Assembly: GCA_964537215.1 (NCBI GenBank)
Contig: CAZIBI010000002.1
Span: 1 to 64,000 of the forward strand
Source of the DNA: an uncultured Ignavibacteria bacterium
GTDB lineage: Bacteria; Zixibacteria; MSB-5A5; CAIYYT01
Reading direction: 5' to 3'
DNA length: 64,000 nt
The notes beneath the pieces are model-generated. The model was not told where the DNA came from. It made no database searches and saw only the letters and a list, made by a program, of their open reading frames with translations. Shown piece by piece: positions 11,310 through 47,083 of this stretch (position 1 is the stretch's first letter; each line of letters opens with the position of its first letter). The translations under genes were made by a program, and so were the position numbers.

Positions 11310-11311
11310 TA

Positions 11312-23256: not shown

Positions 23257-23294
23257 GCGGGAGTGGCGAAATTGGTGGACGCAAGGGACTTAAG
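23257..23294 (+). pseudogene. tRNA-Leu(UAA)-like 5' half (acceptor 5' strand, D-arm, anticodon 5' stem and loop); no 3' half
   Basis: Matches bacterial tRNA-Leu(UAA) through GGACTTAA and then diverges. Slightly mutated relative to copies 2 and 3. Confidence 0.6.
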
Positions 23295-23434
23295 AAGCAA
23301 ACCTGACGAAAACACATGCGAATGACACGCAACGCATTCCCTTCCGCGAAAAAGGGAAGAGGCGCAATTAGTAATGTGCTGCTTTGGATCGACTTCGACA
23401 ACTTTGGATTCTGCGTAGTCACAAATCGGTCACA
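23257..23434 (+). repeat. 178-bp direct repeat, copy 1 (tRNA-Leu 5'-half-like head + GTCACA-N5-GTCACA tail)
   Basis: Conserved head GCGGGAGTGGCGAAATTGGTGGACGCAAGGGACTTAAGAAGCAAACCTGACGAAAAC. Conserved tail TTTGGATCGACTTCGAC...GTAGTCACAAATCGGTCACA. The middle is variable. Confidence 0.8.
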
Positions 23435-23539
23435 GACGCTTCTCTGAGTCTGTATTCATAATTTGAACCAACCTCAAAGAGATCGTGTACAAACTATCGA
23501 CGCCAGGTAAAAACACATCGATCTCTTGTAGGAGCGCGT

Positions 23540-24691
23540 TTGAAGCAGTTCGCGAATGAAAACCATAAATTAATCGTCGAGAAATCACAGGAGCTAAACA
23601 ATCTTACGCTCGGTCGGCGCAGTGTCGCGCAGAGATTGGAGTTGATCAAACTTTACGGCTCCCATTCCTTGGCGTATGCGACACTACAGACCGACTCCTG
23701 TGGAAATCCGCTTCTCGAATATTTCGACACAGATGATGGTTTCCTGGCGTTTTCGACGACGCACTGTTTTGGCACGCGCCAAATCGTACTAGGCGAGCCA
23801 ATTTGTTCGCACGACGACATGGAAGGCATGCTGGCGGCATTTATCAAAAGGTACCCAAGAGCTGTGTTTCTTCAGATTGGCGAGTTTGTCGGTCGTTGTC
23901 TCGAAAAACTCGGCTTCCTCGTCAATAGATTTGGCACAGAGACTATTCTCGACATCGAGAGCTTTTCCCTGAAAGGACTTAGGCGCCAGGACATCCGCAC
24001 GCTACTAAACCGTGCTCACCGAGGCTGTGTCGAAGTCAGGACGTTGCCGAATGTCGACGAATCCCCGCTCGACGTCGAGCAAGTAAGTTTTGAGTGGCTG
24101 CAGAGCCGAGTAGTTCGATCCAGCGAGCTGCGGTTCATGGTAAGGCCGGTACTTCACACAGGGGAGCCTTATGTTCGCAGGTTATATGCATTCGCGAGAG
24201 AGAAATTGGTGGGCTTCGCTTACTATGATCCGATATTTCGAAGTGGGAGAATTGTCGGATATCACGCGATGACGAATCGTTTCTCAGCGAGCGCTCCCGG
24301 GGGCACTTCCTACCTTCTCGATGTCACCATGGCAGCGCTGCTCAAAGACGAAGGAGTCCCACATCTTGCGTTGGGATTTGCTCCATTCTCTCGCGTTGGC
24401 GAACGAGAGTTGTTTCGACACAGTTGGGTTGCGAAGAGATCATTTTCGTTCAACTATTCTTGTTTGAACTCGCTCTATAATTTCAGGGGCCAGGACCTTC
24501 GCAAGCGCAAATTCTGCGGGCGCAGTTTGCCGCTCTACTTCGCGTCAAAGGGGCGTCTCCTGCGCCCATTCGTGGATTTGCTTTCCACTTGCAGAGTAAG
24601 CAACTTCCGCATCGGAGGTCAGATACTGCAGGCTGTCGGGATCCATAACAGAGTATCCGCGGAATTGCCTTCCACTACTGGCGTTTGTTGA
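23540..24691 (+). CDS. DUF2156-like protein (related to the C-terminal aminoacyl-tRNA-dependent domain of MprF/LysX-type phospholipid aminoacyl transferases)
   Basis: 383 aa; overall resemblance to the DUF2156/GNAT-like fold. TTG start with AGGAG SD. Moderate confidence. Confidence 0.45.
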   Translation: MKQFANENHKLIVEKSQELNNLTLGRRSVAQRLELIKLYGSHSLAYATLQTDSCGNPLLEYFDTDDGFLAFSTTHCFGTRQIVLGEPICSHDDMEGMLAAFIKRYPRAVFLQIGEFVGRCLEKLGFLVNRFGTETILDIESFSLKGLRRQDIRTLLNRAHRGCVEVRTLPNVDESPLDVEQVSFEWLQSRVVRSSELRFMVRPVLHTGEPYVRRLYAFAREKLVGFAYYDPIFRSGRIVGYHAMTNRFSASAPGGTSYLLDVTMAALLKDEGVPHLALGFAPFSRVGERELFRHSWVAKRSFSFNYSCLNSLYNFRGQDLRKRKFCGRSLPLYFASKGRLLRPFVDLLSTCRVSNFRIGGQILQAVGIHNRVSAELPSTTGVC

Positions 24692-24867
24692 GTGCGTTCG
24701 TGACAGGACAGCCGGCTATCCATTCGCAACAGACTGCGCGTCGTCCGGCGCATTCAAATGATAGGCAAAGCAACTATTGGAGTGAGTGTCCCTCGATGGC
24801 AACTTCATTACGACATTCTGTTACGTTAAGTTAGAATCAGAGCCATGCGGAAACGAGAGTTCGTCTG

Positions 24868-26205
24868 ATGCATTCTGATCCCATCGCACCAGTGCTTTTG
24901 ATGCTCATGGTCATCCTCGCGGCAGCGAAAATCTGCGGTGAGATCAGCGAGCGCCTCGGTCAGCCGTCGGTCTTGGGCGAGCTACTCGCGGGCATCCTGT
25001 TGGGGAATATCGTCCTTCTGAATCCAGACTGGACGCTTTTTGAATCGTTGCGCGAATCAGCGATTTCTGTAGAACCCGCCGTAATTGTCGACGCTCTCGC
25101 GCGCCTGGGCGTCATTCTGCTTCTGTTTGAAGTTGGACTCGAATCGACCGTGGCTGAGATGAAAAATGTCGGCAAGGCATCGCTTTGGGTGGCTGCTGCA
25201 GGAGTCATCGCTCCCTTCATTCTCGGATTCGGAGCGAGTTGGTTGTTCATATCGGAAGTGCCGAGTGACATTGCAAGGTTGGTTCCGGCTGATTTCGGGG
25301 TTATTAATATTCATATTTTCATAGGCGCCACTCTTTGTGCTACCAGCGTGGGAATAACGGCACGAGTATTCAAAGACTTAGGCAAACTTCAAATTCGCGA
25401 GGCAAAAATCATACTCGGAGCGGCGGTAATCGACGATGTCCTGGGTTTGATCATTCTGGCTGCGGTGTCTGCAATTGTAGCTTCCGCTATGACCGGTGCG
25501 CCGCTTAGCGCATTCGGGCTTGCGCGAATTGCCGTGATTTCGATCGGTTTCCTGGTTCTGTCGATTTTCGTCGGAGTGAAACTCATTCCGCGTATTATGA
25601 CACTTCTTGCCAAGCTCCGATCCGATGGAATCATGGTTATCTCTGCGCTGTTGTTCTGCTTTTTGCTTTCGTGGCTAGCCGACGAAGCCGGACTGGCCGC
25701 GATCGTTGGCGCATTTGCGGCGGGATTGATTCTCGAAGAAGTGCACTTCCGAGACTTCCGCGAACGAATATCGATGCATGAACTCATCCGACCGATAACA
25801 ACATTTTTTGTCCCAATCTTCTTCGTATTGATGGGAATCCGAGTTCGGCTCGAGATGTTTGCATCGCTCCAAGTGCTCGGGCTGGCAGCAGCTTTGACAA
25901 TTGCGGCAATTATCGGAAAGCAGATTTGCGGACTCGCAATCAGAGAAAAGGGCATCGATAAGATTAGTATCGGCGTCGGGATGATACCGCGTGGGGAAGT
26001 GGGACTGATCTTTGCAGGCATTGGTAAGAGCCTGAATGTGGTTGACGACGCCCTATTTTCGGCAATTGTGATTATGGTCACTCTAACGACTTTTGCTGCT
26101 CCACCGATCCTAAGATGGTCGCTCGGTCGCTGGGAAAAAAAGCATGCAAGCGCTGACGGTTCGTCGACACAGGCCTCTCCTCCAGAATCTCCTCCAACGA
26201 AATAA
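24868..26205 (+). CDS. Cation:proton antiporter (CPA2/Kef-type Na+(K+)/H+ exchanger)
   Basis: 445 aa, about 12 TM helices, Na_H_exchanger-type conserved D/E and GxxG patterns. Confidence 0.8.
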   Translation: MHSDPIAPVLLMLMVILAAAKICGEISERLGQPSVLGELLAGILLGNIVLLNPDWTLFESLRESAISVEPAVIVDALARLGVILLLFEVGLESTVAEMKNVGKASLWVAAAGVIAPFILGFGASWLFISEVPSDIARLVPADFGVINIHIFIGATLCATSVGITARVFKDLGKLQIREAKIILGAAVIDDVLGLIILAAVSAIVASAMTGAPLSAFGLARIAVISIGFLVLSIFVGVKLIPRIMTLLAKLRSDGIMVISALLFCFLLSWLADEAGLAAIVGAFAAGLILEEVHFRDFRERISMHELIRPITTFFVPIFFVLMGIRVRLEMFASLQVLGLAAALTIAAIIGKQICGLAIREKGIDKISIGVGMIPRGEVGLIFAGIGKSLNVVDDALFSAIVIMVTLTTFAAPPILRWSLGRWEKKHASADGSSTQASPPESPPTK

Positions 26206-26378: not shown

Positions 26379-26439
26379 TTATAGGAGAGGATGATTGCTC
26401 CAGTGAGGCATACGCATGGAGCACGGGAGGAGTTTCAGA

Positions 26440-27069
26440 GTGAGCGATCCCAAGCCCACAGGCATAGAGGGCGGACCGGCTGAGGCAGATGCACAGCTTA
26501 AGAGCGACTCAAGCGGCAGCAATGCAAATTCTAATGATTCGGCGCACGCTTTGCCGGTTGATATGCAGCCGCCTTATGAGCTGCATGTTTTGAAATCTCT
26601 TCGTCGGATCATCAGGGCTCTTGACCTCTATTCGCGGAGACTTAAGGGCAGCTATGGTCTGACAGTGCCGCAGCTGGTGTGTTTGTCAGTGATTGCAAAG
26701 GATGGACCTATTTCATCGATCGCGCTTTCACAACAAGTGCAGCTAAGTCCCAGCACCATTGTGGGCATTTTGGATCGCCTGCAGAAAATGGAACTAGTCA
26801 AGAGAGTGAGAAGCGTCACCGACCGCAGACTGGTCATAATTACAGCTTCCGAACGTGGGGAAGAAGTGGTTAACGGGGCACCTTCACCACTGCAAGACAG
26901 TCTGACTATTGCTTTAAAGAACCTTCCCGCTACGGAGCAGGAGACCATTGCCAGATCGCTGGGAAGAGTCGTTGAGCTTATGCAAGCACAGGATATTAGG
27001 GTGGCACCGATTCTCACGTTGGAGAAGAACGACTTCTCCATGAATGGAGCGCAAGGAAAGCAAAAGTAA
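26440..27069 (+). CDS. MarR-family transcriptional regulator
   Basis: wHTH core LTVPQLVCLSVIAKDGPISSIALSQQVQLSPSTIVGILDRLQKMELVKRVRSVTDRR. GTG start with GGGAGGAG SD; the ORF track extends upstream to 26416. Confidence 0.75.
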   Translation: MSDPKPTGIEGGPAEADAQLKSDSSGSNANSNDSAHALPVDMQPPYELHVLKSLRRIIRALDLYSRRLKGSYGLTVPQLVCLSVIAKDGPISSIALSQQVQLSPSTIVGILDRLQKMELVKRVRSVTDRRLVIITASERGEEVVNGAPSPLQDSLTIALKNLPATEQETIARSLGRVVELMQAQDIRVAPILTLEKNDFSMNGAQGKQK

Positions 27070-27096
27070 TCTTTGACTATTGGTCAGGAGGTGTCA

Positions 27097-27789
27097 ATGT
27101 TAAGGGGAGTCAAGAAAGTATTAGGATACAAAGTCAGTTCGAACGAGGGGCGTTGCGGTGTGGTGCACGATTTTCTTTTTGACGACCGGTTTTGGAAGCT
27201 AAGCCACTTGGTCGTAAGAATCTCGCTGCCGCAGAAATCACTCCGCCTGTTCCAGCTATCTGCCAAAACTCCCGCGACTGCGATTGCTGAAGCGAACACT
27301 CTAATGCTAAAAGCCAATTCCTCTGCAATACTGTCATCGCCGTCGATCGAGGCTAACCCGCCCGTGTGTCGCCAGCGTAAGCAAGAACTATCGAAACTAA
27401 AGACAGGCGTTACTTCGCACAGCAACGATCAGCCGGATTTCCCGTCCTCAGGGCAGTTGACTCCCGTACCGATGAATCCGAGCTCTCCGAATCCCTCGAC
27501 TCCAGAGTCCGCGAAGGAGGAAACCAGATGGAATCCTCACCTTAGGAGTGTCCGGGAGGTTATTGGTTACCGGATACGAGCGCAAGACGGTCGTGCCGGA
27601 GTCTTGGAGGATCTCATTTCCGATGAGTTTGATTTTTCGATTCGCTACCTGGTCGTCCGAACGCAGCGATTCCTGCTCCGCAAGAGAGTGATCGCAACCC
27701 CAATTGAAGTGAAAGGAATTAGCTGGGACACAGCGACGGTCGATGTCTCGGTGGACCGGCGAGCTTTGCGTCAGCGTCATCCAGTATAG
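27097..27789 (+). CDS. Tandem PRC-barrel domain protein
   Basis: Two PRC-barrel-like units (VLGYKVSSNEGRCGVVHDFLFDD..., VIGYRIRAQDGRAGVLEDLISDE...) separated by a Pro/Ser-rich linker. ATG with GGAGG SD. Confidence 0.65.
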   Translation: MLRGVKKVLGYKVSSNEGRCGVVHDFLFDDRFWKLSHLVVRISLPQKSLRLFQLSAKTPATAIAEANTLMLKANSSAILSSPSIEANPPVCRQRKQELSKLKTGVTSHSNDQPDFPSSGQLTPVPMNPSSPNPSTPESAKEETRWNPHLRSVREVIGYRIRAQDGRAGVLEDLISDEFDFSIRYLVVRTQRFLLRKRVIATPIEVKGISWDTATVDVSVDRRALRQRHPV

Positions 27790-28019
27790 GTGGCGCTGGC
27801 TGAAGACATGTTCGCTTGAAGGCGCAGTAATTCGATTTGCCTTGGCAAGAGAAGTCGGGTCGGTCAATTGGAATTCTTCATTACTTCTCGGGGTTGTGAG
27901 TAACCCTGCCAATCGCGCATCGAAGTGCCAAGCGAATAGTCAGTTGTATTGCCGGCGATTGAACTCCTTGTGGAAAAATGTCGGTGCGGTCCGCTTCGAC
28001 GGAGAAAGGAGAAATAGAA

Positions 28020-28400
28020 ATGACACAGGCCATAACAACCAGAAGCGTAGCACTTTCTGCACAGTCCAAGCGCGTTCTTACGAGTGTCACACGGCATTTG
28101 GAAGCGTTTTTTCGCAGGGTGCTTAGAATCGAATGGACGATCGATACCAGTGGCCGCGGCATAGAGGTCCATTTGAAAGTACATGCGCGCTCCGGGCACT
28201 ATCGCGCACATTGTTGCGTGAACGATGTGGACGCGGGAATTCGCTTAGCAGCTGATCGGGTTGAACGCCAAAGGCGCAGAAAGAAGAAAATCGACTTGCG
28301 AGAGAAGCGTCGGTCGATCTTGTCTCCGAAAGCACGTTTGGCGAAGACCAGCAATACAGGCAAGAGCGCCGGAAATGTCCTTCGTGACTGGCAAAGCTGA
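28020..28400 (+). CDS. hpf: Ribosome hibernation-promoting factor / RaiA-family (short HPF)
   Basis: Beta-alpha-beta-beta-beta-alpha pattern with the conserved AIDxxxDxxERQ..K tail (DAGIRLAADRVERQRRRKK). AAAGGAGAAA SD. Confidence 0.6.
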   Translation: MTQAITTRSVALSAQSKRVLTSVTRHLEAFFRRVLRIEWTIDTSGRGIEVHLKVHARSGHYRAHCCVNDVDAGIRLAADRVERQRRRKKKIDLREKRRSILSPKARLAKTSNTGKSAGNVLRDWQS

Positions 28401-28440
28401 TTCGCCGCAAGGACCGCAGCACGGAAGGAAGTGACACGCG

Positions 28441-29541
28441 ATGAATCTCGATACTTCAGTTGCCGCCAATACTCCGATCGACTGGCTGGTTGCACTCTTG
28501 GTGCCGCTGGTAGCGAGCGGAATAGTCTGGTTGATTCGGTTCTATGTCAAGAAGCGACTGGCGGTATTAGCAGCAGCGACTGACAATGTCCTGGATGACA
28601 TCCTGGTAGATCTCATCGGCGGCGTCAATCTGTTCATCGTATTTGTCGTTGTCGCCTTCATGTCTTCGCGAGCCCTCGTGTTGCCGGAATCCCTGGTTCC
28701 GATTATCAAGACTCTAGCTATTATCGCAGCCTTCGCGCAAGTGGCAATCTGGGGAAACGGTCTGATCTCGATGTTTCTGAATCGCGCCCAAATGAATGAG
28801 GGTTCGCAGCGAATCAATCCATCGGCGCGCAGAGCCATGGGATATCTTGGTCGGCTAGTTCTGTGGACACTAGTAGGTGCACTATTGCTGGAAAACCTGG
28901 GAGTCCAACTAAGCGCATTACTTGCCGGTGTCGGAATCGGCGGCATCGCACTCGCTCTGGCCGCGCAAAATGTCTTGGGAGACATCTTCTGCTATGTCGC
29001 CATCATTCTCGATAAGCCGTTCATCGCCGGTGACTTTGTTATCGTGGGCGAGATGATGGGGACGATCGAGCGGATTGGAATCAAAACAACGCGGGTTAGA
29101 TCGCTTTTCGGCGAACAATTGGTTTTCTCAAATCATGATTTAGTCACAAGCAGATTGCGGAATTACAAGACTATGAGTCAGAGGCGAGTAGTTTTCAGCT
29201 TCGGAGTCGCATACGAAACGCCTGTCGAATCAGTCAAGGGAATTCCGGAAATGACGCGCGAAATAATTTCTTCGATTGAGAGTACGAGATTTGATCGAGC
29301 CCACTTCGCCAAATTTGGTGACTTTAGCCTGGATTTTGAGATTGTGTACTACATTCTCGACAGCGACTACAATCGCTACATGGATATTCAACAACGGATC
29401 AATGTTGAATTGATGAAGCGCTTCAGGGACGAGGGAATCGAGTTCGCATATCCGACCCAGTCGCTTTATCTCAAGCGGCCGGAACGAATAGTAAGGGAGG
29501 CGCCGCCGTTGGTCGCGGAGGAAAGTGATGGGTACAATTGA
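28441..29541 (+). CDS. Small-conductance mechanosensitive channel (MscS family)
   Basis: TM3 pore-helix-like LALAAQNVLGDIFCYVAIILDKPFIAGDFV followed by the MscS beta-domain. The stop overlaps the downstream start. Confidence 0.85.
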   Translation: MNLDTSVAANTPIDWLVALLVPLVASGIVWLIRFYVKKRLAVLAAATDNVLDDILVDLIGGVNLFIVFVVVAFMSSRALVLPESLVPIIKTLAIIAAFAQVAIWGNGLISMFLNRAQMNEGSQRINPSARRAMGYLGRLVLWTLVGALLLENLGVQLSALLAGVGIGGIALALAAQNVLGDIFCYVAIILDKPFIAGDFVIVGEMMGTIERIGIKTTRVRSLFGEQLVFSNHDLVTSRLRNYKTMSQRRVVFSFGVAYETPVESVKGIPEMTREIISSIESTRFDRAHFAKFGDFSLDFEIVYYILDSDYNRYMDIQQRINVELMKRFRDEGIEFAYPTQSLYLKRPERIVREAPPLVAEESDGYN

Positions 29542-29711
29542 ATAGGAATAAATCAGATGGTGATATAGGGTTCGACCGCGGGCTAGATGTTGAAGCACCG
29601 CGACTCGAACCGCAAGGTTTATCTTTGGAAAATCCAATCGCAAATTTCGAGAGCAATACTGTGCATACCGCGGCGGGCCTCGCCGCCAGGATCGAGGCGG
29701 TTGCACGCGGT

Positions 29712-31139
29712 ATGAAGCTGATCGTGGTGTCGAACCGAGAGCCATGTATTCATGAGCGAACCGGACAGGGACTGCGAATTGTGAGACCGGCAAGCGGCAT
29801 GGTAACGGCGCTGGAACCGATTGTGCGGGCGGTCGGCGGAACATGGGTTGCCCATGGATCCGGTAGCGGCGATCGCAACGTCGTCGATGCTCGGGATCGC
29901 GTAGTCATTCATGCTAATGAACAGCAATACACGCTTCGGCGAGTCTGGTTGACGCGACAGGAGGAAGAGGGATATTATTATGGGCTATCCAACAGTGCGC
30001 TGTGGCCCCTGTGTCACATTGTGTACCAGATGCCCGAATTTCGCAAGAGCGATTGGGACCAGTACCTCGCAGTAAACGAGAAATTCTGCCAGGCTGTTCT
30101 TGAGGAAGCGGAGGGGGGACCAGCGATTGTCTTTATTCAAGACTATCAGCTCGGACTACTTTCGCGCCTGTTAAGAAATCGTCGAAGCGATCTCGTACTG
30201 GTACAGTTTTGGCACATCCCTTGGCCAAATCGGGAGGCCTTCCGCGTTTTTCCGTGGGGCGAACAACTGCTTGACGGGCTTTTAGGCAACGACATATTGG
30301 GTTTCCACATTCAGTATCACTGCAATAATTTCATGGACACTATCGATCGCGGAATTGAGGCCAAAGTTGATTACGAACATTTTCGCATTTTTCGCGGCGG
30401 TCGTCCAACCTCGATTCGTCCGTTTCCGATTAGTGTTGACTCGGCGCAGATAGAATCAGATTCGCATTTGCCCCGTGTTGATGAAAAGATCCTTGAATTT
30501 AGCGCTGCTATCGGTTACGCCCCCGGCAATCGAAGGTTGTTTGTCGGCGCTGACCGGATCGACTACACGAAGGGAATTCTTGAACGATTAAAGGCTCTTG
30601 ACGTCTTGATGCAACAACATCCGGAACTTCGCGGGAATATTAGTTTCATGCAGTTGGCCGCACCCAGCCGCACCCACATTGATGTATATCGTGACCTTAA
30701 TGATCGGATAGAAGATCTGGTTGACGACATAAACTGGCGCCATCAAACTGACGAATGGCAGCCCATCCATTACCTCAGAGCTCAACACGACTATTATGCG
30801 GTTTTAGCCGCCTACCGGATGGCTGATGTTTTATTGACCACGTCGTTGCATGACGGCATGAATTTGGTCGCCAAGGAATTTATTTCCACCAAGAGTGATA
30901 ACAGCGGAGTTCTCGTGCTTTCTCAATACACCGGGGCTGCCCGGGAAATGCCCGATGCCCTTTTAGTAAATCCGTTCGATGTCGAGGATCTTGCCGCAGC
31001 CATGTATGCGGCCTGCACGATGTCGGAGACCGAAATTAGTCAACGGATGTCGCGCCTTAGAGACCAACTAACTAATAACAATGTCTATTCTTGGGGAGCA
31101 AAAATCTTCGACGAGATTAGAAAGGTGCTTCCGCAATGA
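29712..31139 (+). CDS. otsA: Trehalose-6-phosphate synthase-like GT20 glycosyltransferase (OtsA; could also be a glucosylglycerol-phosphate synthase)
   Basis: GT20 architecture (KLIVVSNREP..., IQDYQL, FWHIPWP, C-terminal GMNLVAKE). An alternative TTG start at 29538 overlaps the MscS stop. Confidence 0.75.
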   Translation: MKLIVVSNREPCIHERTGQGLRIVRPASGMVTALEPIVRAVGGTWVAHGSGSGDRNVVDARDRVVIHANEQQYTLRRVWLTRQEEEGYYYGLSNSALWPLCHIVYQMPEFRKSDWDQYLAVNEKFCQAVLEEAEGGPAIVFIQDYQLGLLSRLLRNRRSDLVLVQFWHIPWPNREAFRVFPWGEQLLDGLLGNDILGFHIQYHCNNFMDTIDRGIEAKVDYEHFRIFRGGRPTSIRPFPISVDSAQIESDSHLPRVDEKILEFSAAIGYAPGNRRLFVGADRIDYTKGILERLKALDVLMQQHPELRGNISFMQLAAPSRTHIDVYRDLNDRIEDLVDDINWRHQTDEWQPIHYLRAQHDYYAVLAAYRMADVLLTTSLHDGMNLVAKEFISTKSDNSGVLVLSQYTGAAREMPDALLVNPFDVEDLAAAMYAACTMSETEISQRMSRLRDQLTNNNVYSWGAKIFDEIRKVLPQ

Positions 31140-31915: not shown

Positions 31916-32154
31916 TCAGAATTGACCTGTAAAGTCTATTGCTTCCGGAACAAACTCGATATCCTACTCACTACTTGCAACAAATTGTATGCATGAGTTG
32001 CCGCAAATCACCGGATATTCCCGTAAACCAGATTGAAGTTAATTCTCGCACTTGCAATCGGTCTTTCAAATTCTTCCCCCAGAGCCGAAAGAATGTTCTT
32101 GTGGAGAGAAAAGCTGAAGAGTATCTGGTAAGGTAGTTAGTCAGGAAAGAGCTA

Positions 32155-38396: not shown

Positions 38397-38786
38397 TCAT
38401 CGGCAGGCATCCACGATTCGCACAATTTGTCCTTCTACCTGCGCTGCGATCGCCGCCACGTCTTTGCTGGGGAAGAAGTTGGAGATTACTGTCGGTCGCA
38501 TTGCGCAAATGAACGTACGTCCCTTGTCGGCATAGATGCTGATGGGACAAGGAAGCATCAGAGAGATCTCTGGATCGATGCTGAGGACGTCATTCGCGAA
38601 TTTGGCGTTGCAGATTTCCACAATTTTCATCGATTCACGAACAAATCCTTTGGCCGCCAAGGTTGCTTGAACGTCGTGAACGTGCAGCACGCGAAACCCA
38701 GCATCCTGGCTCGTTGCCTCGACTGCAGCAAGCGCGGCGTCCACACTCTTGCCCGTCTCAACCGTATAGTCGAATTCCTTTTGCAT
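38397..38786 (-). CDS. DUF302-family protein
   Basis: Conserved DUF302 core (GFRVLHVHDVQATLAAKGF...MLPCPISIY). Start at internal ATG with GAGGAG SD. Confidence 0.65.
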   Translation of the reverse strand: MQKEFDYTVETGKSVDAALAAVEATSQDAGFRVLHVHDVQATLAAKGFVRESMKIVEICNAKFANDVLSIDPEISLMLPCPISIYADKGRTFICAMRPTVISNFFPSKDVAAIAAQVEGQIVRIVDACR

Positions 38787-38949
38787 TGCTTTGACTCCTC
38801 GGTAAAACGATTTCAATTGATTCTGCTCCACTGTCTGCACACCTGCGTTCGTGATCAACTCGCCTCAACGCACTCGGCACGAAACCGATGCTGCGTTGCA
38901 ATGTTGTTCTCAAACGTTTCGGTTTTATCGATAGCAATTCCACGCACGC

Positions 38950-39489
38950 CTACGGTCGTGTCCGAAAATGAAGCATGAAGCCGCCGTATTGGTAGCTATT
39001 CATGTCCATCATCATGCCATTGCGACCGCGTACGTCACCGTAAACGTACAGCATGCAGTTCGTATTCGGCATCAAGGTTGAGTCGACGTAGAATGTGCAG
39101 CTGTCGAGCATTTGATTCCACTCAAATGAGCCGTGAAAATCGATTGAGTCGAGCCAGTTCATCATGTGGCCCATGTTCATCATGCCGCCGCCCATCATAC
39201 CACGGTGATGCTGGAGCGAGTCCATCCAGCTGGGCAAACCCGGACTTGCAGTGAAGTGGAAGTTGTGTCGGAAGCTGGCTGAGTCCATCGGCATATCAAA
39301 CTTGATGTCGAGAATCGGTTTTAAGGCAACGTCGTTACTTCCTTCTGCCGGCGTGACGCGAACGATTTTCGGTGCGGTCGTAGGAAGACTATTGCCAGTA
39401 GTCTTATTGTCGTCACTGCAACCGGCAATCCACGAAAGCGACACTACCAGAACCAGCCCGAGCAATGCTGTGACAGAGAATTGTCTCAT
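38950..39489 (-). CDS. Lipoprotein with Met/His-rich motif (candidate Cu/Ag-binding periplasmic protein)
   Basis: Signal peptide plus lipobox (WIAGCSDD). HHRGMMGGGMMNMGHMMNW Met-rich stretch. AAGGAGA SD. Adjacent to the czc-type operon. Confidence 0.5.
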   Translation of the reverse strand: MRQFSVTALLGLVLVVSLSWIAGCSDDNKTTGNSLPTTAPKIVRVTPAEGSNDVALKPILDIKFDMPMDSASFRHNFHFTASPGLPSWMDSLQHHRGMMGGGMMNMGHMMNWLDSIDFHGSFEWNQMLDSCTFYVDSTLMPNTNCMLYVYGDVRGRNGMMMDMNSYQYGGFMLHFRTRP

Positions 39490-39683
39490 GCTAAAGTCTC
39501 CTTATTGAAGCAAATCTGAGTAAAAGACACCGTTTCTCAAACGAGACACAGAATACATGTACGAAACAAACCACGCTTGTTGAGTTTCTGACACGCAGTA
39601 CGCTAACATCTATTGACATGTCTTTGCTTGAAACCGTGGAAGGTAGCGTCCAACGCGAAGAACAGTTTCCACATACTCGAATC

Positions 39684-42600
39684 TTAGTTGTTTGTTATTG
39701 CCTCACTTTCCGCCGCTCTATGGAAGATGCGATACAAGGCGGGCAGCACAACCAATGTCAAGAACGTCGATGACAATATTCCGCCAATCACAACGGTCGC
39801 CAGAGGTCGCTGTACCTCAGCACCCGAGCCGGTCGCAATAGCCATTGGCACAAATCCCAGTGAGGCGACCAGCGCTGTCATCAGCACGGGGCGCAGGCGA
39901 GTCAACGCGCCGCGTTTGATCGCATCTTCAAGATGACTACCTTCCTCACGAAGTTTGTTGATAAACGAAACCATCACCAGGCCGTTGAGTACGGCTATAC
40001 CTGAAAGCGCGATAAAACCAACTCCGGCCGAGATTGACAGCGGTATGTCCCTAAACCAAAGCGTCAGAATGCCGCCGGTCAGAGCCAGTGGGATGCCGGT
40101 AAAGACCAGTATCGAATCCTTGATCGAGCCGAAAGTAGCGAAGAGGAGCAAGAAGATCAGCAATAAGGCAATGGGCACCACGACCTGCAGTCGTGCTTTT
40201 GCAGCAATCAAGTTTTCGAACTGACCGCCCCAGGTCATCCAATACCCAGCAGGCAACTTTACGTTTTCGTTTATTTTCTCCTGCGCCTCAGCGACGAACG
40301 AGCCGATATCGCGGCCGCGCACGTTTGATTGCACCACCACACGACGCTTGCCGTTCTCGCGGCTAATTTGGTTCGGTCCTTCAGCAATACTGATCTTCGC
40401 AATTGCCCCAAGAGGCACATAGCCCGGATCGACATCACCGGAAAGAGCATAGGAAGCGAAGGCTATCTCGCGCTCGCGATCTGCACTTGGCTCGGGCAGC
40501 GGAATCGCAAGGAACTCCAGCGCCTCCACGTCACGCCGCACTTCCTCAGGAAGACGGACCACGAGGTCGAAGCGTCGATCTCCCTCGAATACCTGGCCGA
40601 CGCTCGTGCCGCCGACCGCAGCTTCGACAACTTCCTGCACATCTGCAATATTCAATCCATAACGAGCTATGGCAAGGCGGTCTAGGTCAACCGTCAGAAT
40701 CGGTAGGCCAGTGACCTGTTCAACCTTGATGTCCGCTGAGCCGCGGACATCTTGCAGGATTGCGGCTATCTTCTGTCCCTGCTCAAGCATTACCTCCAAA
40801 TCGTCGCCGAATACTTTCACGGCAACGTCGCTGCGCACGCCAGCAATGAGCTCGTTGAAGCGCATCTGAATTGGTTGAGTGAATTCGTAAGCGTTTCCCG
40901 GCAGATGGTCGATAGCTTCTTCAATGTCTTTTACTAAGTCTGCCTTTGGTTTACTTGGATCAGACCACTCGGAACGTGGCTTGATGATGATAAAACCGTC
41001 AGCAATCGAGGGGGGCATGGGGTCGGTGGCAATCTCCTGCGTACCGATTTGGGCAAAGACGCGTTCCACCTCCGGCACCGTCAGCACGGCTCGCTCCCAT
41101 TCTTTCTGCATCTCCGTTGACTGGGCCAGACCCGTCGAGGGAATGCGGAAGGATTGAATGAGGACATCACCTTCATCGAGCTGCGGGATGAATTCACTCC
41201 CCATACGAGAAGCGACGAGTGTGCAGAAGATGATGAAGGCGCTGGCGACAGTTACGGTCATCCACCGCTGCTGAATCACCTTGTCCAAGAGTGGTTCGTA
41301 TACGCGCTTGCAGCCGCGGATAACAATGCTTTCCTGCTCGGAAACCTTGCCGCCAAGAAACAATGCTATGCCTGCTGGAATGAACGTAAACGTTAGAATC
41401 AGCGCTCCGGCAAGGGCGAACAGCACCGTCTCAGCCATTGGAATGAACATTTTGCCTTCGATGCCGCCCAGAGTGAGGATCGGCAGGTAAACTATCATGA
41501 TGATTGCGACGCCAAACAGAGTTGGCTTAGACACTTCGCGAGCACTTTCGAACGCTTCTTCGAGGCGTTCACCTTTTGTCAGGAGTCTCCCCAGATGCTT
41601 TTGGCGCTCTGAGAATCGGCGGATGATGTTCTCGACCATAACTACGGCGCCGTCAACGATGATGCCGAAGTCGATGGCGCCAAGGCTCATGAGGTTGCCA
41701 CTAACCTTGTTCCCTACCATCCCGGTTACTGCAAAGAGCATGGATAGCGGAATGGTCAGCGACACAAGGAGCGCCGCACGGAGATTGCCAAGCAGAGCGA
41801 AGAGGATAGCGATGACCAAGACCGCGCCTTCAAAAAGATTGTTGCGGACTGTTCGCAGAGTAGCGTCCACAAGATGAGTGCGGTCGCGAACAGTGCGGGC
41901 AATAATGCCTTCCGGCAACGTCTCGTTAACTTCTTTCATTCGGGCATCCACGCGCCTGGAGACCGTTCGACTATTCTCACCCATGAGCATGAACACCGAA
42001 CCAAGCACAACCTCTTCGCCGTTCTCCGTAGCTGATCCGGTTCGCAGTTGCTTGCCAAGATCAACATTGGCAACATCGCGGATAAAGACCGGGGTACCGT
42101 CATTTTCGCCGATAATGATGTTGCGAATGTCGTCAACACCGCTCACCAGTCCGGGTACGCGAATGAGGTATTGCTCGCCCTTGTGCTCGATATAGCCAGC
42201 TCCGACTGAGCTGTTGTTTTTGGCAAGCGCTTCCATGACGTCATGAAAGCTCAGGCCGTAGGCAACCAATCGCGCGGGATCGGGGGTCACGTGGAATTGC
42301 TTTTCGTACCCGCCGACGGTGTTGACTTCGGTTACGCCGGGTACGGTTCGGAGTTGTGGTTTGATCACCCAGTCCTGGATTTCTCGCAGGTCAGTGGGCG
42401 TGTACGGCTCACCGTTCGACTTGGTTGCGCCCGGCTCCGCTTCGATGGCCCAACTGTATATCTCACCAAGACCTGTCGATATTGGCCCCATTTCCGGCTC
42501 ACTCGCTGTGGCCGGGAGATTTGCTTTGGCCTCCTGCAATCTCTCATTCACCAACTGACGGGCAAAGTAGATATCGGTTCCGTCTTCGAACACGACCGTC

Positions 42601-42878
42601 ACCTGCGACAGCCCGTAACGTGACAACGAACGGGTATGTTCTACTTTTGGTATGCCGCCCATGGCCGTCTCAATAGAAAAGGTAATCTGTTTTTCAACCT
42701 CGAGCGGTGACATGCCCGGCGCTGCAGTGTTAATCTGCACTTGCACATTGGTAATGTCCGGCACGGCGTCAATCGGCAGACGGTTGAAGTTGTAAATCCC
42801 GAGCACTGCCAAGCCAACGACCGCCAACAAAATGAGCCAGCGGTTGTGTATGGAAAAGTTTATTATTTTTTCAAGCAT
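39684..42878 (-). CDS. czcA: Heavy-metal efflux RND transporter, CzcA/CusA family
   Basis: 1064 aa, 12 TM helices plus large periplasmic loops, HME-RND-type conserved segments. Confidence 0.9.
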   Translation of the reverse strand: MLEKIINFSIHNRWLILLAVVGLAVLGIYNFNRLPIDAVPDITNVQVQINTAAPGMSPLEVEKQITFSIETAMGGIPKVEHTRSLSRYGLSQVTVVFEDGTDIYFARQLVNERLQEAKANLPATASEPEMGPISTGLGEIYSWAIEAEPGATKSNGEPYTPTDLREIQDWVIKPQLRTVPGVTEVNTVGGYEKQFHVTPDPARLVAYGLSFHDVMEALAKNNSSVGAGYIEHKGEQYLIRVPGLVSGVDDIRNIIIGENDGTPVFIRDVANVDLGKQLRTGSATENGEEVVLGSVFMLMGENSRTVSRRVDARMKEVNETLPEGIIARTVRDRTHLVDATLRTVRNNLFEGAVLVIAILFALLGNLRAALLVSLTIPLSMLFAVTGMVGNKVSGNLMSLGAIDFGIIVDGAVVMVENIIRRFSERQKHLGRLLTKGERLEEAFESAREVSKPTLFGVAIIMIVYLPILTLGGIEGKMFIPMAETVLFALAGALILTFTFIPAGIALFLGGKVSEQESIVIRGCKRVYEPLLDKVIQQRWMTVTVASAFIIFCTLVASRMGSEFIPQLDEGDVLIQSFRIPSTGLAQSTEMQKEWERAVLTVPEVERVFAQIGTQEIATDPMPPSIADGFIIIKPRSEWSDPSKPKADLVKDIEEAIDHLPGNAYEFTQPIQMRFNELIAGVRSDVAVKVFGDDLEVMLEQGQKIAAILQDVRGSADIKVEQVTGLPILTVDLDRLAIARYGLNIADVQEVVEAAVGGTSVGQVFEGDRRFDLVVRLPEEVRRDVEALEFLAIPLPEPSADREREIAFASYALSGDVDPGYVPLGAIAKISIAEGPNQISRENGKRRVVVQSNVRGRDIGSFVAEAQEKINENVKLPAGYWMTWGGQFENLIAAKARLQVVVPIALLLIFLLLFATFGSIKDSILVFTGIPLALTGGILTLWFRDIPLSISAGVGFIALSGIAVLNGLVMVSFINKLREEGSHLEDAIKRGALTRLRPVLMTALVASLGFVPMAIATGSGAEVQRPLATVVIGGILSSTFLTLVVLPALYRIFHRAAESEAITNN

Positions 42879-42889
42879 ATGGTAGTCTC

Positions 42890-43231
42890 CTATACCGCTG
42901 CATCGCCGGTTTCACCGGTGCGGATGCGTGCCACGTATGCGATATCGCTGATGGTTATGATTCCGTCGCCGGCGTTGCCCGTATGGGCGTGCCCGGCAAT
43001 AGCCTTCACGATGCTGTCGGCATCTTCATCAGAGCAAATAATCTCAATGCGCTCCTTGTCGTGGAACTGAATCTCGTCTTCGGTTAGAACGAAGGTGCCG
43101 CCCTGGCCGCGGCCGCGGCCCTGGCCCTGACATTTGAGTACCGTCATGCCCGGGAAATGGGGAAGCTCATGCAGCGCTTGCGCCACCTTGCTGAACATAT
43201 GTGGTTGAATGGTTGCTTTGATTTCTTTCAT
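42890..43231 (-). CDS. P-II (GlnB)-like small protein associated with the RND efflux operon
   Basis: 113 aa, ferredoxin-like PII fold pattern (MKEIKATIQP...GMTVL...G.G...). Confidence 0.6.
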   Translation of the reverse strand: MKEIKATIQPHMFSKVAQALHELPHFPGMTVLKCQGQGRGRGQGGTFVLTEDEIQFHDKERIEIICSDEDADSIVKAIAGHAHTGNAGDGIITISDIAYVARIRTGETGDAAV

Positions 43232-43240
43232 GGCTTCCTC

Positions 43241-44233
43241 CTAATGTTCGTGACCGGCTTCGCCCTTGCCGAATTCCGCTTTGAAAATGTAACTGTCGGC
43301 TGCGACGTACTCCTCGCCCGGCTTCAATCCGTTTAGAATTTCCACGTTCTTGCCATCACTGCGGCCAAGGGTCACTGGCCGAATTTCGAAGGCATCACCT
43401 TCTTTTACAAAGACGACCGGTTTATCCTCAATAGTCTGAACTGCATCATCGGGAATGGCCATTTCGACCTGATCTTTAGCAACGGCGATTTTTGCCGTCA
43501 CGAAGAGTCCCGGCTGCCAGACGCCGCGCGGATTGGAGAGCACGACGCGAGCGGAACCAGTACGCGTGCGTTCGCCGATTATCGGGCCGACGTAGTCGAT
43601 TGTTCCTTCGACCGCTTCGTCGATACCACTAGCGGTCAGTCGAACGTGTTGCCCCGGCTTGATCAGCGAAAGGTACTTGGAATAGATGCTGATCTTGACC
43701 CAAACAGTGGAGAGGTCGGCAACGACGTAAACATCAGCATCATCACGCACAAACTCACCGAGCGTGATGTGTTTCTCGATAATGGTTCCGGACACCAGAG
43801 ACTTCACCTCATAGGGGGCAACGCTTTGGTTGCTTTGAACAACGGCGAGTACCTCTCCGGAGTCGACGCGATTTCCAAGATCCTTTCGCACCCGCTGGGC
43901 AATCCCGGCAAAGCGCGGCACAATGTGAGCGACTTTATCGGCATTCAGAACGATTTCGCCCGGCAGTTCTATCTCCTGCACGATCATGCCAGGGCCAGCT
44001 TTGGCGAGTTTGAGCCGTTGGAGTATGGGCGCGTCGTCGTGGAGCGTAATGCGATCCATAGTTGCGTGGCCCTCCTCATGTTCACCATGCTCTCCCGTCT
44101 CCTCAGCAAGTGCCTCTTGTTCCTCGTGTTCTTCCCCGGTCACCTGCGGCTCGCTTTGCAAAACAAAGACGCTTGCGACGGCAAGCACGAGGAGTGCCGC
44201 GATGGTTATTAGTACAGATTTCTTCATTCTCAT
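43241..44233 (-). CDS. czcB: RND efflux periplasmic adaptor (CzcB/CusB family) with His/Glu-rich N-terminus
   Basis: Signal peptide, HEEQEALAEETGEHGEHEEGH metal-binding-like stretch, MFP barrel/hairpin segments. Overlaps the czcC stop. Confidence 0.8.
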   Translation of the reverse strand: MRMKKSVLITIAALLVLAVASVFVLQSEPQVTGEEHEEQEALAEETGEHGEHEEGHATMDRITLHDDAPILQRLKLAKAGPGMIVQEIELPGEIVLNADKVAHIVPRFAGIAQRVRKDLGNRVDSGEVLAVVQSNQSVAPYEVKSLVSGTIIEKHITLGEFVRDDADVYVVADLSTVWVKISIYSKYLSLIKPGQHVRLTASGIDEAVEGTIDYVGPIIGERTRTGSARVVLSNPRGVWQPGLFVTAKIAVAKDQVEMAIPDDAVQTIEDKPVVFVKEGDAFEIRPVTLGRSDGKNVEILNGLKPGEEYVAADSYIFKAEFGKGEAGHEH

Positions 44234-45555
44234 CTCCTCACCGGATTCAAGCGATGACCGGTTAGCTGTTCAATGCCGATGGCGGCGTTGGCGCCCGCCA
44301 CAAGTGCGTCAATAAGTTGCCCCTGTAATTCTGAGAGGGTTCTTTGCGCGTCGAGAACGTTGATGTAGGGCTGGGAGCCGAGTCGGTACGCTAGATCAAT
44401 CTCTTCCATAGCTTGTTGCGCTGGTGGAATGACCTGCTCGCGCAGCATTGCAATCAACTCGCGTTGTGTTTGGAGTCCGACCAGTAGTTGCCGGAGTTCG
44501 CCGTCCAGTCGCTGGCGCGTAGCGGCGAGTTCGGCTTCGGACTGCGTCAAACGCTCTGTGGCTTCGGCGACACCCCCTTTGTTGCGGTTGAACAGGGGTA
44601 ACGGTACGGAGGCCCAGACGAGGAAGGAATTGCTCCCATCATCGTGCAAACGCCGATAACCGGCTCCGAGATTCAGATCAGGTTTGCCGGTAGCCTTTGA
44701 AAGCTTGATATTCGCTTCTCTGGCCCGCATTTGCGCTTGCAGAGCGGCGAGTGCCGGATTTTCGTCTACCGATAGCATTTCATTACCTGTGGGTGCACTC
44801 GCAAGCCACTCATCAAGTGAACCATCGACCCGGAAAGTAGCGTCACTTGACCCCCACAGTGCAGCCAGGGCTAAACGTGCCTGAGTCGCCGTCGCTTCGG
44901 ATGCCGCAAGGTCGATCTGGCCGAGGTTGGTTGCCGATTGAGCCCGGAGTAATTCGGCTTTCGGCACTGCGCCATCATAGACCTTTACTCGTACCGCCTC
45001 TTCTATCTTTCGCGCCAGTTCCAGACGCTGCTTCGCCAACGTGATATTATCCTGAGCTGCAAGTGCAGCAGCGAAGGAAGATGCAACCGATTGATAGAGA
45101 TCCAGTAGCCTGAGTTGTGCCGCGTACTGTTCTGCAGAGAGCTCCGCCTCCGCGACCGCTTTTCGCGCGCCACGCTTGCCGAATAGCTCAAACGGCTGTT
45201 CAACGCCTATGGTTGTTTGAGCTGGTCCGGATTCGTTCTTCCGACCGAAGTCTTCGATCTCTGTGGAAAGTTCAGGGTTGGGTCGATACCGACTCTGTTG
45301 CAGTCTCCCCGTTGCCGCGGCGATCTGCGCTCGCGCCGCTTGCATCTGCGGATTGCGCGCCACGACCAATTGCAGAGCAGAGTTGAAACTGAGAGCGGAA
45401 TCAGTTACCGAAGGAAGATTCTCTTGAACCCCATATTCCTGGTACACCGGCGGCAGGAGCGATGGCGCACTTGGGGGATTCTGGGCTAGTGCCAGTCCCG
45501 GAAGTCGGGTTAAAATAAAGACCAGATATAATGTTGTTCGAAAGTGCATCAACAA
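44230..45555 (-). CDS. czcC: TolC-like outer-membrane efflux protein (CzcC/CusC family)
   Basis: Signal peptide, two OEP repeat units with coiled-coil-rich sequence. Confidence 0.8.
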   Translation of the reverse strand: MLMHFRTTLYLVFILTRLPGLALAQNPPSAPSLLPPVYQEYGVQENLPSVTDSALSFNSALQLVVARNPQMQAARAQIAAATGRLQQSRYRPNPELSTEIEDFGRKNESGPAQTTIGVEQPFELFGKRGARKAVAEAELSAEQYAAQLRLLDLYQSVASSFAAALAAQDNITLAKQRLELARKIEEAVRVKVYDGAVPKAELLRAQSATNLGQIDLAASEATATQARLALAALWGSSDATFRVDGSLDEWLASAPTGNEMLSVDENPALAALQAQMRAREANIKLSKATGKPDLNLGAGYRRLHDDGSNSFLVWASVPLPLFNRNKGGVAEATERLTQSEAELAATRQRLDGELRQLLVGLQTQRELIAMLREQVIPPAQQAMEEIDLAYRLGSQPYINVLDAQRTLSELQGQLIDALVAGANAAIGIEQLTGHRLNPVRR

Positions 45556-45656
45556 TTCTCCAAGCTAAAATAGTGTGGTTAGCCATGTCGCATAAGCGGC
45601 ATGGCAACGCTCCCGAACAGATCGGGAGCCGATCATGTTCTATCTTGCTTGGAGAA

Positions 45657-46067
45657 TCAGCAGCGAATGACGGTAGCTGCAGTGAAGACGCTGAAGTCGG
45701 CGTCCAACGCGAATTCGGGGGGATCTAGCAGCTCTTGTATAAACATGTGAAAGCAGACAGCAGGTGCGTTAGAGCCGTGTCCGAGATTCTGAAGGGAATT
45801 TAATTGTCCCCGATCATTGATAGTTTGAGCCCAGCGGCCGAATTCAGGCAATTGGAAATCTGTACACGAGACGCATTCACTCGGAATCTCCTGACCGGCG
45901 ATGGAGACCTCCGAAACTGCGCTAATAGCAATCGAACAGCACTCTGCGCCAAAACTTTCAAATTCGGAATGTCCCGATTCACCAACACACAGAACTGTTG
46001 TGCCTTGAATCGGAATTACGAGAACTTGGAGTAACAGCAAAGCGCCGCTCAACACTTTTGTTCGCAT
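45657..46067 (-). CDS. Hypothetical secreted Cys-containing protein
   Basis: Internal ATG with a clear signal peptide (MRTKVLSGALLLLQVLVIP). Eight Cys residues. No known domain recognised. Confidence 0.35.
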   Translation of the reverse strand: MRTKVLSGALLLLQVLVIPIQGTTVLCVGESGHSEFESFGAECCSIAISAVSEVSIAGQEIPSECVSCTDFQLPEFGRWAQTINDRGQLNSLQNLGHGSNAPAVCFHMFIQELLDPPEFALDADFSVFTAATVIRC

Positions 46068-46762
46068 ATTGGTAAACATGCCAAAATATACGTAACTATT
46101 CAAATTCATCCAAGACCAAAAATCTCCATGCTTTTCCTTCCAAGAGATAGACTTCAAAATCGTCAACCTGAAGGTAGACATAATGCATTTAACACTCGTT
46201 AGCCTTATTGGTTCCACGGAATCCGTGCTCAACCTGACCTTCGGGTTTTGACCAACTTGCATGCATCCGCAAGTTTAATCGTCGAAAGAACTCGACAATA
46301 TCTGGACACAAGGGGATAGAAGTTGGGAACGGTTTGGTCAATGGCAGGTATGTCAACGGTGTTTTCTTGACGGTTGTTGGGAACCTTGTCCGACCGTCGA
46401 GCGCGTATGATCACACGCCGGGCGCATTAGAGAGAGATTAGCATATTCCTTGGCTCTCAAGTTCGAGGCAAATCTGGAAATAGGTTTTCGTGGCACAGCT
46501 CAGAGAGGAGGCAGCTTCTAGTTCCTCTGGATATTGGATTTGCTTGGCTTTCTTGGTTGCACTTTCGGCGTACCGATTACTTGAAATGAACACCAGCATT
46601 AGTTTGCTACGACTCCATCTGCGACAGTCTGACTCGCCTAAGAGCGGCACTGTACTATCATAGGGATCGCTAGCTGTCTTGAACCAATTATTCAGCAGCT
46701 TAGACAGGTGCTTTACGAAGCCTTGTTCCGAGTTTGTGATACTGATGTACTCGAGCAAAATT

Positions 46763-46782
46763 GTAGTCACAATTTGGTCACA
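46763..46782 (+). repeat. Solo copy of the repeat tail motif GTAGTCACAATTTGGTCACA
   Basis: 19/20 match to the tail of repeats 1–3. Lies 124 bp upstream of copy 3 with no associated tRNA-like head. Confidence 0.6.
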
Positions 46783-46905
46783 ACACCAGACTAATCCTAA
46801 GTCAAGTGACAATTTATCAATCACCTAAGTAACTTGCCGCACGGCTTCAAAAGCCCCTTGCGTCCTCTCGAAGATAAGTTCAAATTGTTGAACAGCTAAC
46901 CAATT

Positions 46906-46943
46906 GCCGGAGTGGCGAAATTGGTAGACGCAAGGGACTCAAA
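46906..46943 (+). pseudogene. tRNA-Leu(UAA)-like 5' half, copy 3 (anticodon loop CTCAAAA)
   Basis: As copy 2 with one substitution in the anticodon loop. Confidence 0.6.
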
Positions 46944-47083
46944 AAGCGAGACTGACGAAAACGCAAACGAATAAACCGCAACGTATTATGTTGTGCGACA
47001 ATCGGGTGGCCAGTCTTATGTTAAGCATTACTTTGTATCACTTTTGACGATTTGGGACTAGTTATAGTCACAAATTGGTCACA
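46906..47083 (+). repeat. 178-bp direct repeat, copy 3
   Basis: GCCGGAGTGGCGAAATTGGTAGACGCAAGGGACTCAAAAAGCGAGACTGACGAAAAC ... TTTTGACGATTTGGGACTAGTTATAGTCACAAATTGGTCACA. Confidence 0.85.

Follow-up and report, generated by a model that had tools for sequence, protein, structure and literature searches.

Recombination with the 5' region of a tRNA gene is known among integrative elements but infrequent, and elements with tyrosine recombinases can form arrays by re-using one and the same site (PMC6563490). Tandem accretion and the cis-mobilizable elements (CIMEs) are established concepts, as in the ICESt1/ICESt3 family where islands are stacked at one RNA gene with repeated attachment (att) sites between them (PMC5704250). 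The tandem ssrA islands of Dehalococcoides show the same stacking and att repeats (PMC3146451). In both systems the repeat comes from the target gene's 3' end and one or more of the resident elements keep an integrase; older members retain att sites without genes for integration or transfer, and the cargo is adaptive (resistance, defence). A comparable locus is found in a 64,000-nucleotide stretch of DNA (hereafter the window) from an uncultured bacterium of the Zixibacteria (contig CAZIBI010000002.1, positions 1 to 64,000), where three direct repeats of 178 bp begin with the 5' half of a tRNA-Leu(UAA) gene. These repeats are probably the att junctions of islands that were inserted successively into tRNA-Leu(UAA) and subsequently lost their integrases. 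The array as a whole most likely represents a known kind of event, i.e., tandem accretion of islands at a tRNA gene, in an uncommon 5' orientation, and not a new cassette system. Unlike in the two stacked systems, it is here the 5' half that is repeated, and no integrase is found in 28 kb of island DNA. To our knowledge, the mobile elements of this uncultured phylum are essentially undescribed. Integration into the 5' part of tRNA genes, in a "reversed target orientation", was reportedly described by Zhao and Williams in 2002, and PMC6563490 cites this work together with archaeal examples.

The proposed origin of the repeats draws on features that were seen directly, namely the breakpoint, empty sites in relatives, variable cargo, a two-armed junction and an association of the arm motif with integrases elsewhere. 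An earlier note on this DNA, made from the sequence alone, had placed the three 178-bp copies at 23257-23434, 35475-35652 and 46906-47083 (units 1, 2 and 3) in direct orientation with spacings of 12,218 and 11,431 bp, and all of this was confirmed. The head pattern occurs three times and the tail pattern four times in the window, where shuffled sequences are expected to give none, and the three units are pairwise 70-78% identical. Each consists of the first 40 nt of tRNA-Leu(UAA) and a further 138 nt that are not tRNA and end in GTCACA-N5-GTCACA. The assignment of the head to a tRNA-Leu 5' half holds, as it matches the intact tRNA-Leu(UAA) genes of two relatives, L017 and L021 (loci are referred to by L numbers), at 40/40 positions in unit 2, 39/40 in unit 3 and 38/40 in unit 1. 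The head has further matches among annotated tRNA-Leu genes of phage and plasmid records, in which the similarity stops with the anticodon loop.

The centre of the repeat had been regarded as unalignable, which did not survive comparison: nine units from six genomes align without gaps, with a mean identity of 88% for the head, 55% for the middle and 74% for the tail. The nine-unit fold contains no conserved hairpin. A length of exactly 178 nt without insertions or deletions, despite a middle of only 55% identity, fits a fixed spacing between protein-binding sites. Homology also reaches upstream of the head, for about 70 nt in unit 1 and about 143 nt in unit 3, and past 35652 a weaker similarity to L006, L007 unit A and L008 continues for about 120 nt. 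Read in one frame, the tails at 23380-23434, 35598-35652 and 47029-47083 give LLWIDFDNFGFCVVTNRSQ, LVWIDFDYLGLNVVTNWSQ and LLCITFDDLGLVIVTNWSH, with many differences at third codon positions, and they resemble diverged copies of a short coding segment, but there are stop codons just upstream.

Genomes and metagenomes were scanned with a junction pattern consisting of the anticodon loop plus AGCRA, which matched three loci in metagenome-assembled genomes and three metagenome contigs; the GTDB representatives do not include the source genome itself. Full 178-nt units are present in L006, L007 (two, A and B), L008 and L016, and a further unit of 178 nt, in L010, contains three GTCACA-type repeats; the identical break, with other sequence afterwards, is seen in L009 and L011. 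Scans of the viral collection with the head junction, with arm plus head and with the left-arm box gave no matches, nor did a protein scan with the ATPase of block 3 (the DNA following unit 3). In a blastn search of the 321-bp junction around unit 3 (see below) against phages and plasmids, the 40-nt tRNA head was the sole match.

The insertion point can be read from relatives, whose neighbourhoods were collected via ImuA orthologues and, as a second anchor, via a CpsD-like kinase gene lying beyond the tRNA in L017. This genome has an empty site with the order imuA, intact tRNA-Leu(taa), CpsD, the tRNA being about 120 bp from imuA. The left flank of L017, including the SOS/LexA-type box of imuA, is shared by L008/L018, L016 and L012/L013; L008/L018 and L016 part from L017 exactly after CTTAAAA and run into unit sequence, and in L012 the break is 3 nt later. 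The variant in L012/L013 (9703-9880, minus strand) breaks after AAAATCC and carries the arm motif GGACACTTTTTGGACAC instead of GTCACAAATTGGTCAC, which suggests a sister family of elements with another arm specificity and the same target. A second empty site is found in L021, with the order MscS-GT20-TPP-DUF5752-TreT-Na/H-CLC, intact tRNA-Leu(taa), GT2-CpsD and exopolysaccharide (EPS) genes. Window 35290-35514 (flank plus head, 223 nt) is 87% identical to L021, the two diverge exactly after the anticodon loop, and GT2, CpsD and Wzy of L021 have no counterparts in the window. The intact site of L021 together with the divergence after the loop identifies unit 2 as the primary attL, a left junction at which the native tRNA-Leu gene was split by foreign DNA. 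It retains the acceptor strand, the D arm, the 5' strand of the anticodon stem and the loop CTTAAAA. The comparison with L021 places at least 28.5 kb of foreign DNA to the right of unit 2, and the join of the empty site would be expected to read from window 35514 into TCCCTCGTG...GGTTCGATTCCGG. Block-wise variation at the repeats, as asked for in the earlier note, is thus seen to the right of the native 5' half, where L021 has EPS genes and the window has other genes, but not inside block 1 (the DNA between units 1 and 2). A partial copy of the D stem and anticodon arm, GGACGCAAGGGACTAAAAATT, lies at 35405-35431, about 45 nt before the native tRNA-Leu begins; as it is kept in the empty-site genome L021 (about 12340-12365, minus strand), it belongs to the native flank and predates the islands.

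Unit 3 is part of a longer junction with two arms. A fourth copy of the tail motif alone, overlooked in the first description, lies at 46763-46782, and 46763-46905 together with unit 3 form a junction of 321 bp with the order arm motif, tRNA-derived core, arm motif. The left arm is homologous over its full length (window 46765-46905) to the region upstream of L007 unit B, this homology begins at the outer arm motif, and in both junctions the core is flanked by two copies of GTCACA-N5-GTCACA that are 301 bp apart. Within the arm, the stretch at 46854-46865 is an inverted copy of the head bases GGACGCAAGGG. From this layout, 46763-47083 is most likely an internal, attP-like junction where island 1 meets island 2. 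Tandem 5' halves are present both in the window (units 2 and 3) and in L007 (A and B), which means that each element must bring its own 5' half, and the coexistence of a 5' half with its native flank and of internal 5' halves implies that the 5' part of the tRNA is included in the attP of each element. In units 1, 3 and L007 unit B the acceptor stem, D arm or anticodon loop of the head has substitutions which would be intolerable for a working tRNA, so that these heads are scars.

The exact 19-mer of the tail motif was found in four IMG/VR contigs (L002-L005), with a Phage_integrase gene overlapping it or within about 100 bp in all four, and in three of these a second copy in the same orientation follows 190-250 bp away. 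A tRNA fragment lies between the two copies in L005, and this motif-tRNA-motif layout matches an attP with arm-type sites around a tRNA-derived core. The integrases beside the 16-19-nt motif GTCACAAWTNGGTCAC are of the P4 type with Arm-DNA-bind_3 (L002) and of Int_N/SAM_5 types (L004, L005), and in L005 the motif falls inside the last codons of the integrase gene (..SLVTNQSQ..). The tail of the window units was also considered as the remnant of an integrase C terminus (...VVTNWSQ, like ...LVTNQSQ in the integrase of L005); this was rejected as there is no integrase body and every unit has stops in its middle.

Taken together, these observations are best explained by a family of integrative islands whose target in Candidatus Zixiibacteriota would be the tRNA-Leu(UAA) gene, with recombination where the anticodon loop has its 3' edge. 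The elements would replace the 5' part of the tRNA gene, with an attP that holds their own first 40 nt as well as upstream sequence and a core flanked on each side, some 120-165 bp off, by the directly repeated GTCACA-N5-GTCACA. After integration the left end (attL, the 178-bp unit) would consist of native flank, native 5' half and the right arm of the element, and at the right end the 5' half of the element would presumably be fused to the native 3' half, which rebuilds the gene. Repeated integration at one core would give tandem islands with internal junctions that resemble a full attP (arm, core, arm), and the islands may later have lost their integrases and become fixed as CIME-like remnants. 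In the window this would make unit 2 the attL, 35653-46762 an old metal-efflux island, 46763-47083 an internal junction, and the DNA from 47084 on an island of defence and mobility genes. The recombination was presumably carried out by a heterobivalent tyrosine integrase, as indicated by a geometry that is fixed at 178 nt despite the variable spacer and by the paired arm motifs beside integrases elsewhere. Such an arrangement resembles the lambda-type attP in having a core between direct arm motifs 120-165 bp away, with fixed spacing and a variable spacer, and in the motif pair adjoining integrase genes in the viral contigs; it differs in that the arm sites here are putative and that there are no clear inverted core half-sites. 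With other elements that use the 5' part of tRNA genes the locus shares a copy of the tRNA 5' part at the island boundaries, a truncated 5' half that keeps its native flank, and an attP that carries the 5' half. It departs from them in its host, an uncultured member of the Zixibacteria, in that neither integrase nor rebuilt tRNA was seen, and in the unusual length (about 320 bp) and strictly fixed spacing of its att region. Much of the interest of the locus lies in the replacement of the 5' part, an uncommon orientation, and the long, strictly spaced att region could serve to mark the limits of islands for defence or metal resistance in metagenome-assembled genomes of this group.

Several observations weigh against successive insertion by elements of this kind. 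A rebuilt tRNA-Leu was seen nowhere, and the sole right end that was reached, in L025 (the contig of L006) via the CpsD orthologue, has no tRNA and no remnant of a 3' half. More widely, no tRNA 3' half or T arm is present in the window or in the complete array of L025, and the whole window contains no tRNA according to ARAGORN and no Rfam family at the gathering threshold. At the place where the right junction of L025 would be expected (10702-11491) there is a truncated and frameshifted remnant of an IS256-family transposase, and the GT2 gene of L021 is missing; it is plausible that a deletion linked to this insertion sequence (IS) removed the rebuilt tRNA, though this explanation is made after the fact. 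No recombinase was found beside any of the about ten junctions examined in eight genomes (window, all three; L007 A and B; L008/L018; L016; L012/L013; L025; L010; L011), nor anywhere in the window, where tblastn with the tyrosine integrases of L002 and L005 gave no match and no open reading frame (ORF) has a Phage_integrase, serine recombinase or DDE/transposase domain in any library. The viral integrases adjacent to the motif are of different subfamilies, so that the link between motif and integrase is an association and not a demonstrated binding site. The AGCGA to the right of the breakpoint is not an inverted half-site of the anticodon stem, and no classical symmetric core is evident. The divergence of block 2 (the DNA between units 2 and 3) from its counterpart in L012 equals that of the backbone, with no sign of recent mobility. 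Finally, unit 1 is off any tRNA locus, and L006 is without unit 1 and its surroundings.

Unit 1 is located between a POT transporter gene and the LPG-synthase-C gene, inside a 10-kb segment that is missing from L006. Its left arm of about 70 nt has a homologous counterpart before the L006 unit and shows a weaker homology with the left arms of unit 3 and L007 unit B; the arm motif is absent from it. It is tempting to speculate that unit 1 is a circularly permuted, re-inserted island fragment or a rearranged piece of the array.

The absence of a recombinase at every junction would be expected if the blocks formed a cassette array served in trans, in which blocks without integrases, bounded by tRNA-Leu-derived sites of about 320 bp with a fixed 178-bp geometry, are captured, excised and reshuffled by a recombinase that is encoded elsewhere or belongs to an unrecognised family. 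Conserved arms and exact 178-nt spacing in integrase-free islands, as well as the single-gene block between the two units of L007, also fit this, and if true it would amount to a platform for cassettes in the chromosome, with a tRNA gene as its anchor. It is nevertheless unlikely, because block 2 has diverged from L012 like the backbone, which speaks for long vertical residence and not for shuffling, the order of blocks relative to the tRNA is constant wherever seen, the blocks have several genes in mixed orientation, no candidate for a trans-acting recombinase was identified, and integrase loss after accretion (CIME formation) is documented and simpler (PMC5704250). Block 2 is att-bounded on both sides and encodes only metal-efflux proteins and unknowns, with no integrase or conjugation genes, and in these features it agrees with a CIME as defined there. 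An integron attC-like logic, or else an undescribed cassette array, had been put forward in the earlier note, and the array does share with integron attC arrays one direct repeat per gene block, conserved ends and a variable centre. There is however no IntI in the 64 kb, no attI and no Pc, the repeat lacks the hairpin and consists of part of a tRNA gene at a tRNA locus, the blocks span 11-17 kb or more with multiple genes in both orientations, and block 2 is an old resident, for which reasons the integron was rejected. That no integrase lies inside any block had been seen correctly, and among the options then listed "att remnants of tandem integrative elements" fits best; mobilisation in trans, raised there as well, is conceivable. 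The repeats might also be inert scars, where a single illegitimate insertion into the tRNA was followed by segmental duplication or rearrangement that made the extra copies, and the tail would be shared ancestry. Neither an integrase nor a rebuilt tRNA was seen, unit 1 occupies a non-tRNA position in a lineage-specific segment and there has been IS activity at the locus, all of which would agree with such an origin. It is improbable all the same, as at least six genomes, with two left-flank contexts, show the break after the anticodon loop together with unrelated cargo, L012 has a second variant of the arm motif with a break 3 nt away, the patterned and indel-free conservation (88/55/74%) is unlike neutral decay, and the arm motif flanks the core on either side and is found again next to integrases elsewhere.

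Strict conservation of length, together with the native tRNA upstream region retained by unit 2, could alternatively reflect a structured non-coding RNA gene, e.g., a small RNA derived from the tRNA, a split or intron-containing tRNA-Leu, or a guide RNA of a mobile element. The classical group I intron of tRNA-Leu(UAA) sits in this same loop, and an RNAalifold run on three sequences paired head with tail, with a few compensatory pairs. This is very unlikely given that the nine-sequence consensus fold reaches only -6.7 kcal/mol with 18 pairs, a covariation term of +0.41 and one compensatory pair, and given the lack of Rfam matches, ARAGORN tRNAs and a 3' half and the disabling substitutions in the heads. 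Least of all do the repeats look like the ends of a Tn7-like or CRISPR-associated transposon, or a miniature inverted-repeat transposable element (MITE), which we regard as extremely unlikely. The tail ends in ...ACA and resembles TnsB-type repeats, there is weak complementarity between head and tail, and Tn7-like elements are known to insert next to tRNA genes; similarity to the end repeats of cyanobacterial Tn7-like elements is also seen in the tail GTCACAAATTGGTCACA and the box GTGACAATTTATC. All copies of the motif are however direct and none inverted, the window has no tnsA/B/C, tniQ, cas12k or transposase, and the tRNA is split inside the gene instead of being targeted downstream, with no target-site duplications. 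A MITE or repetitive extragenic palindromic (REP) element is contradicted by copies that are confined, in each genome, to the neighbourhood of tRNA-Leu and by a head-tail complementarity that is weak and not conserved; the earlier view that these are recombination sites derived from a tRNA gene, and not REP or MITE elements, therefore stands. The coordinates of the att-like features and of the DNA between them are collected in Table 1.

Table 1. Features of the tRNA-Leu(UAA) locus and of the islands to its right, in window coordinates.
Feature	Position	Strand	Description
Left arm of unit 1, partial	23187-23256	+	CCCTCGTGTCC...TTAACCCTAAATTGCC...CACTCT; element-type, not native tRNA flank
Unit 1	23257-23434	+	Displaced junction copy; head with 2 mismatches, 138-nt element arm ending GTCACAAATCGGTCACA
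Native backbone, not element	26416-35164	.	MarR, MscS, GT20 trehalose-P synthase, trehalose-P phosphatase (TPP), Na/H antiporter, CLC
Native flank upstream of tRNA-Leu(UAA) (B arm)	35290-35474	+	Between divergent CLC gene and tRNA start
Unit 2 head	35475-35514	+	Native tRNA-Leu(UAA) 5' 40 nt; breakpoint at 3' edge
Unit 2 element arm	35515-35652	+	AGCGAACCCGACGAAAAC, variable spacer, TTTGGATCGACTTTGAC, arm motif GTCACAAATTGGTCACA at 35636-35652
Island 1 (block 2)	35653-46762	.	By Pfam: P-type heavy-metal ATPase, Big_5 protein, AcrB-like RND pump, P-II, HlyD/CzcB, OEP; two unknown ORFs; no integrase
Junction 3 left arm	46763-46905	+	Arm motif GTAGTCACAATTTGGTCACA at 46763-46782; second conserved box TCAAGTGACAATTTATCAATCA at 46802-46823; CCCCTTGCGTCC at 46854-46865
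Unit 3	46906-47083	+	Element-borne copy of tRNA-Leu 5' 40 nt, loop mutated to CTCAAAA; right arm ending GTCACAAATTGGTCACA
Island 2 (block 3)	47084-64000, runs off window	.	ImmA/M78-like peptidase; no integrase within window
TraD/HerA/mad8-like ATPase	48178-49458		Island 2
Cas4-like PD-(D/E)XK nuclease	50316-51077		Island 2
Two adjacent unknown ORFs	52253-54450		404 and 328 aa; no match in Pfam, PHROGs, NCBIfam, PADLOC
Type III restriction-modification (R-M)	Mod 54691-56922, Res 56935-59631		Island 2
Ppl-like PHP-ATPase	59628-62309		PADLOC 1.4e-42

The three repeats had been thought to separate three cargo modules for osmotic stress, metal resistance and defence or mobility, and the first of these has to be abandoned. 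Ordinary chromosomal genes are found to the left of unit 1, including an imuA-imuB-dnaE2 cassette at 11312-16830. Block 1 carries genes for LPG-synthase-C, two Na/H antiporters, MarR, MscS, trehalose-P synthase and phosphatase, and CLC. MscS, GT20, TPP, Na/H and CLC (window 28.4-35.2 kb) are collinear with L021, where they stand beside the intact tRNA-Leu, with 72-94% amino acid identity, and MarR, MscS and CLC are found in L006 too. Judged by this collinearity, the osmotic-stress block is conserved chromosomal backbone and not cargo. L006 is without window 16.7-26.5 kb (which holds unit 1), 27.1-28.4 kb and 29.5-33.4 kb, which shows that differences inside block 1 do not track the repeat boundaries. 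On the corrected map, foreign DNA is confined to the part after unit 2, and the genes for osmotic stress are native.

In L012/L013, homologues of block 2 adjoin the tRNA-Leu 5' half on its right side, and in L020 they are neighbours of imuA; the block is missing from the empty-site genomes L017 and L021. Its proteins are 63-81% identical to those of L012, compared with 50-92% for backbone proteins, and a divergence as large as that of the backbone makes block 2 an old resident island. A gene for a P-II signal-transduction protein is inserted between the membrane-fusion and RND pump genes of the metal-efflux operon (window 42890-43231, L012 3847-4188, L020 4811-5152) and is kept in all three genomes that carry the block.

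The block of defence and mobility genes, which had been placed inside 23257-47083, actually follows 47083 and is outside that span. Besides the genes listed in Table 1 it contains a DUF932 gene, and by its predicted gene content island 2 (47155-62309) is a defence island. The source contig (L001) extends about 1 kb past the window, and the right end of the array lies beyond the window. From genome to genome the DNA after the 5' half differs and looks accessory: the cargo seen there includes RND metal efflux, an MFS efflux operon (a 4.5-kb MarR-MFP-MFS-OEP operon in L006), a LysR-linked metabolic cluster (L018), a type I R-M system (L011), a Ser/Thr kinase and a defence island, and in L007 a one-gene block encoding a protein of 1253 amino acids lies between the two units.

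L011, an unrelated metagenome contig, has at 1003-1150 a tRNA-Leu 5' half with strong -35/-10 boxes (TTGCAA...TATAAT) and the same break, after which a terminator hairpin is followed directly by the R subunit of a type I restriction system. This case indicates that the anticodon loop of tRNA-Leu(UAA) is also used by other island families. In the window, boxes resembling -35 and -10 elements can be picked out by eye in the left arms, but a sigma-70 scan upstream of every unit, the native flank included, gave no promoter; the lineage may use other types. A LexA-type SOS box, TACTGCACACATGTGCAGTA (CTG-N10-CAG), lies at about 16596-16615, just upstream of imuA-imuB-dnaE2, and is conserved at the equivalent place in the Zixibacteria relatives L012, L017 and L008. 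In several relatives a tRNA-Leu gene or a unit is located about 100-120 bp beyond this box.

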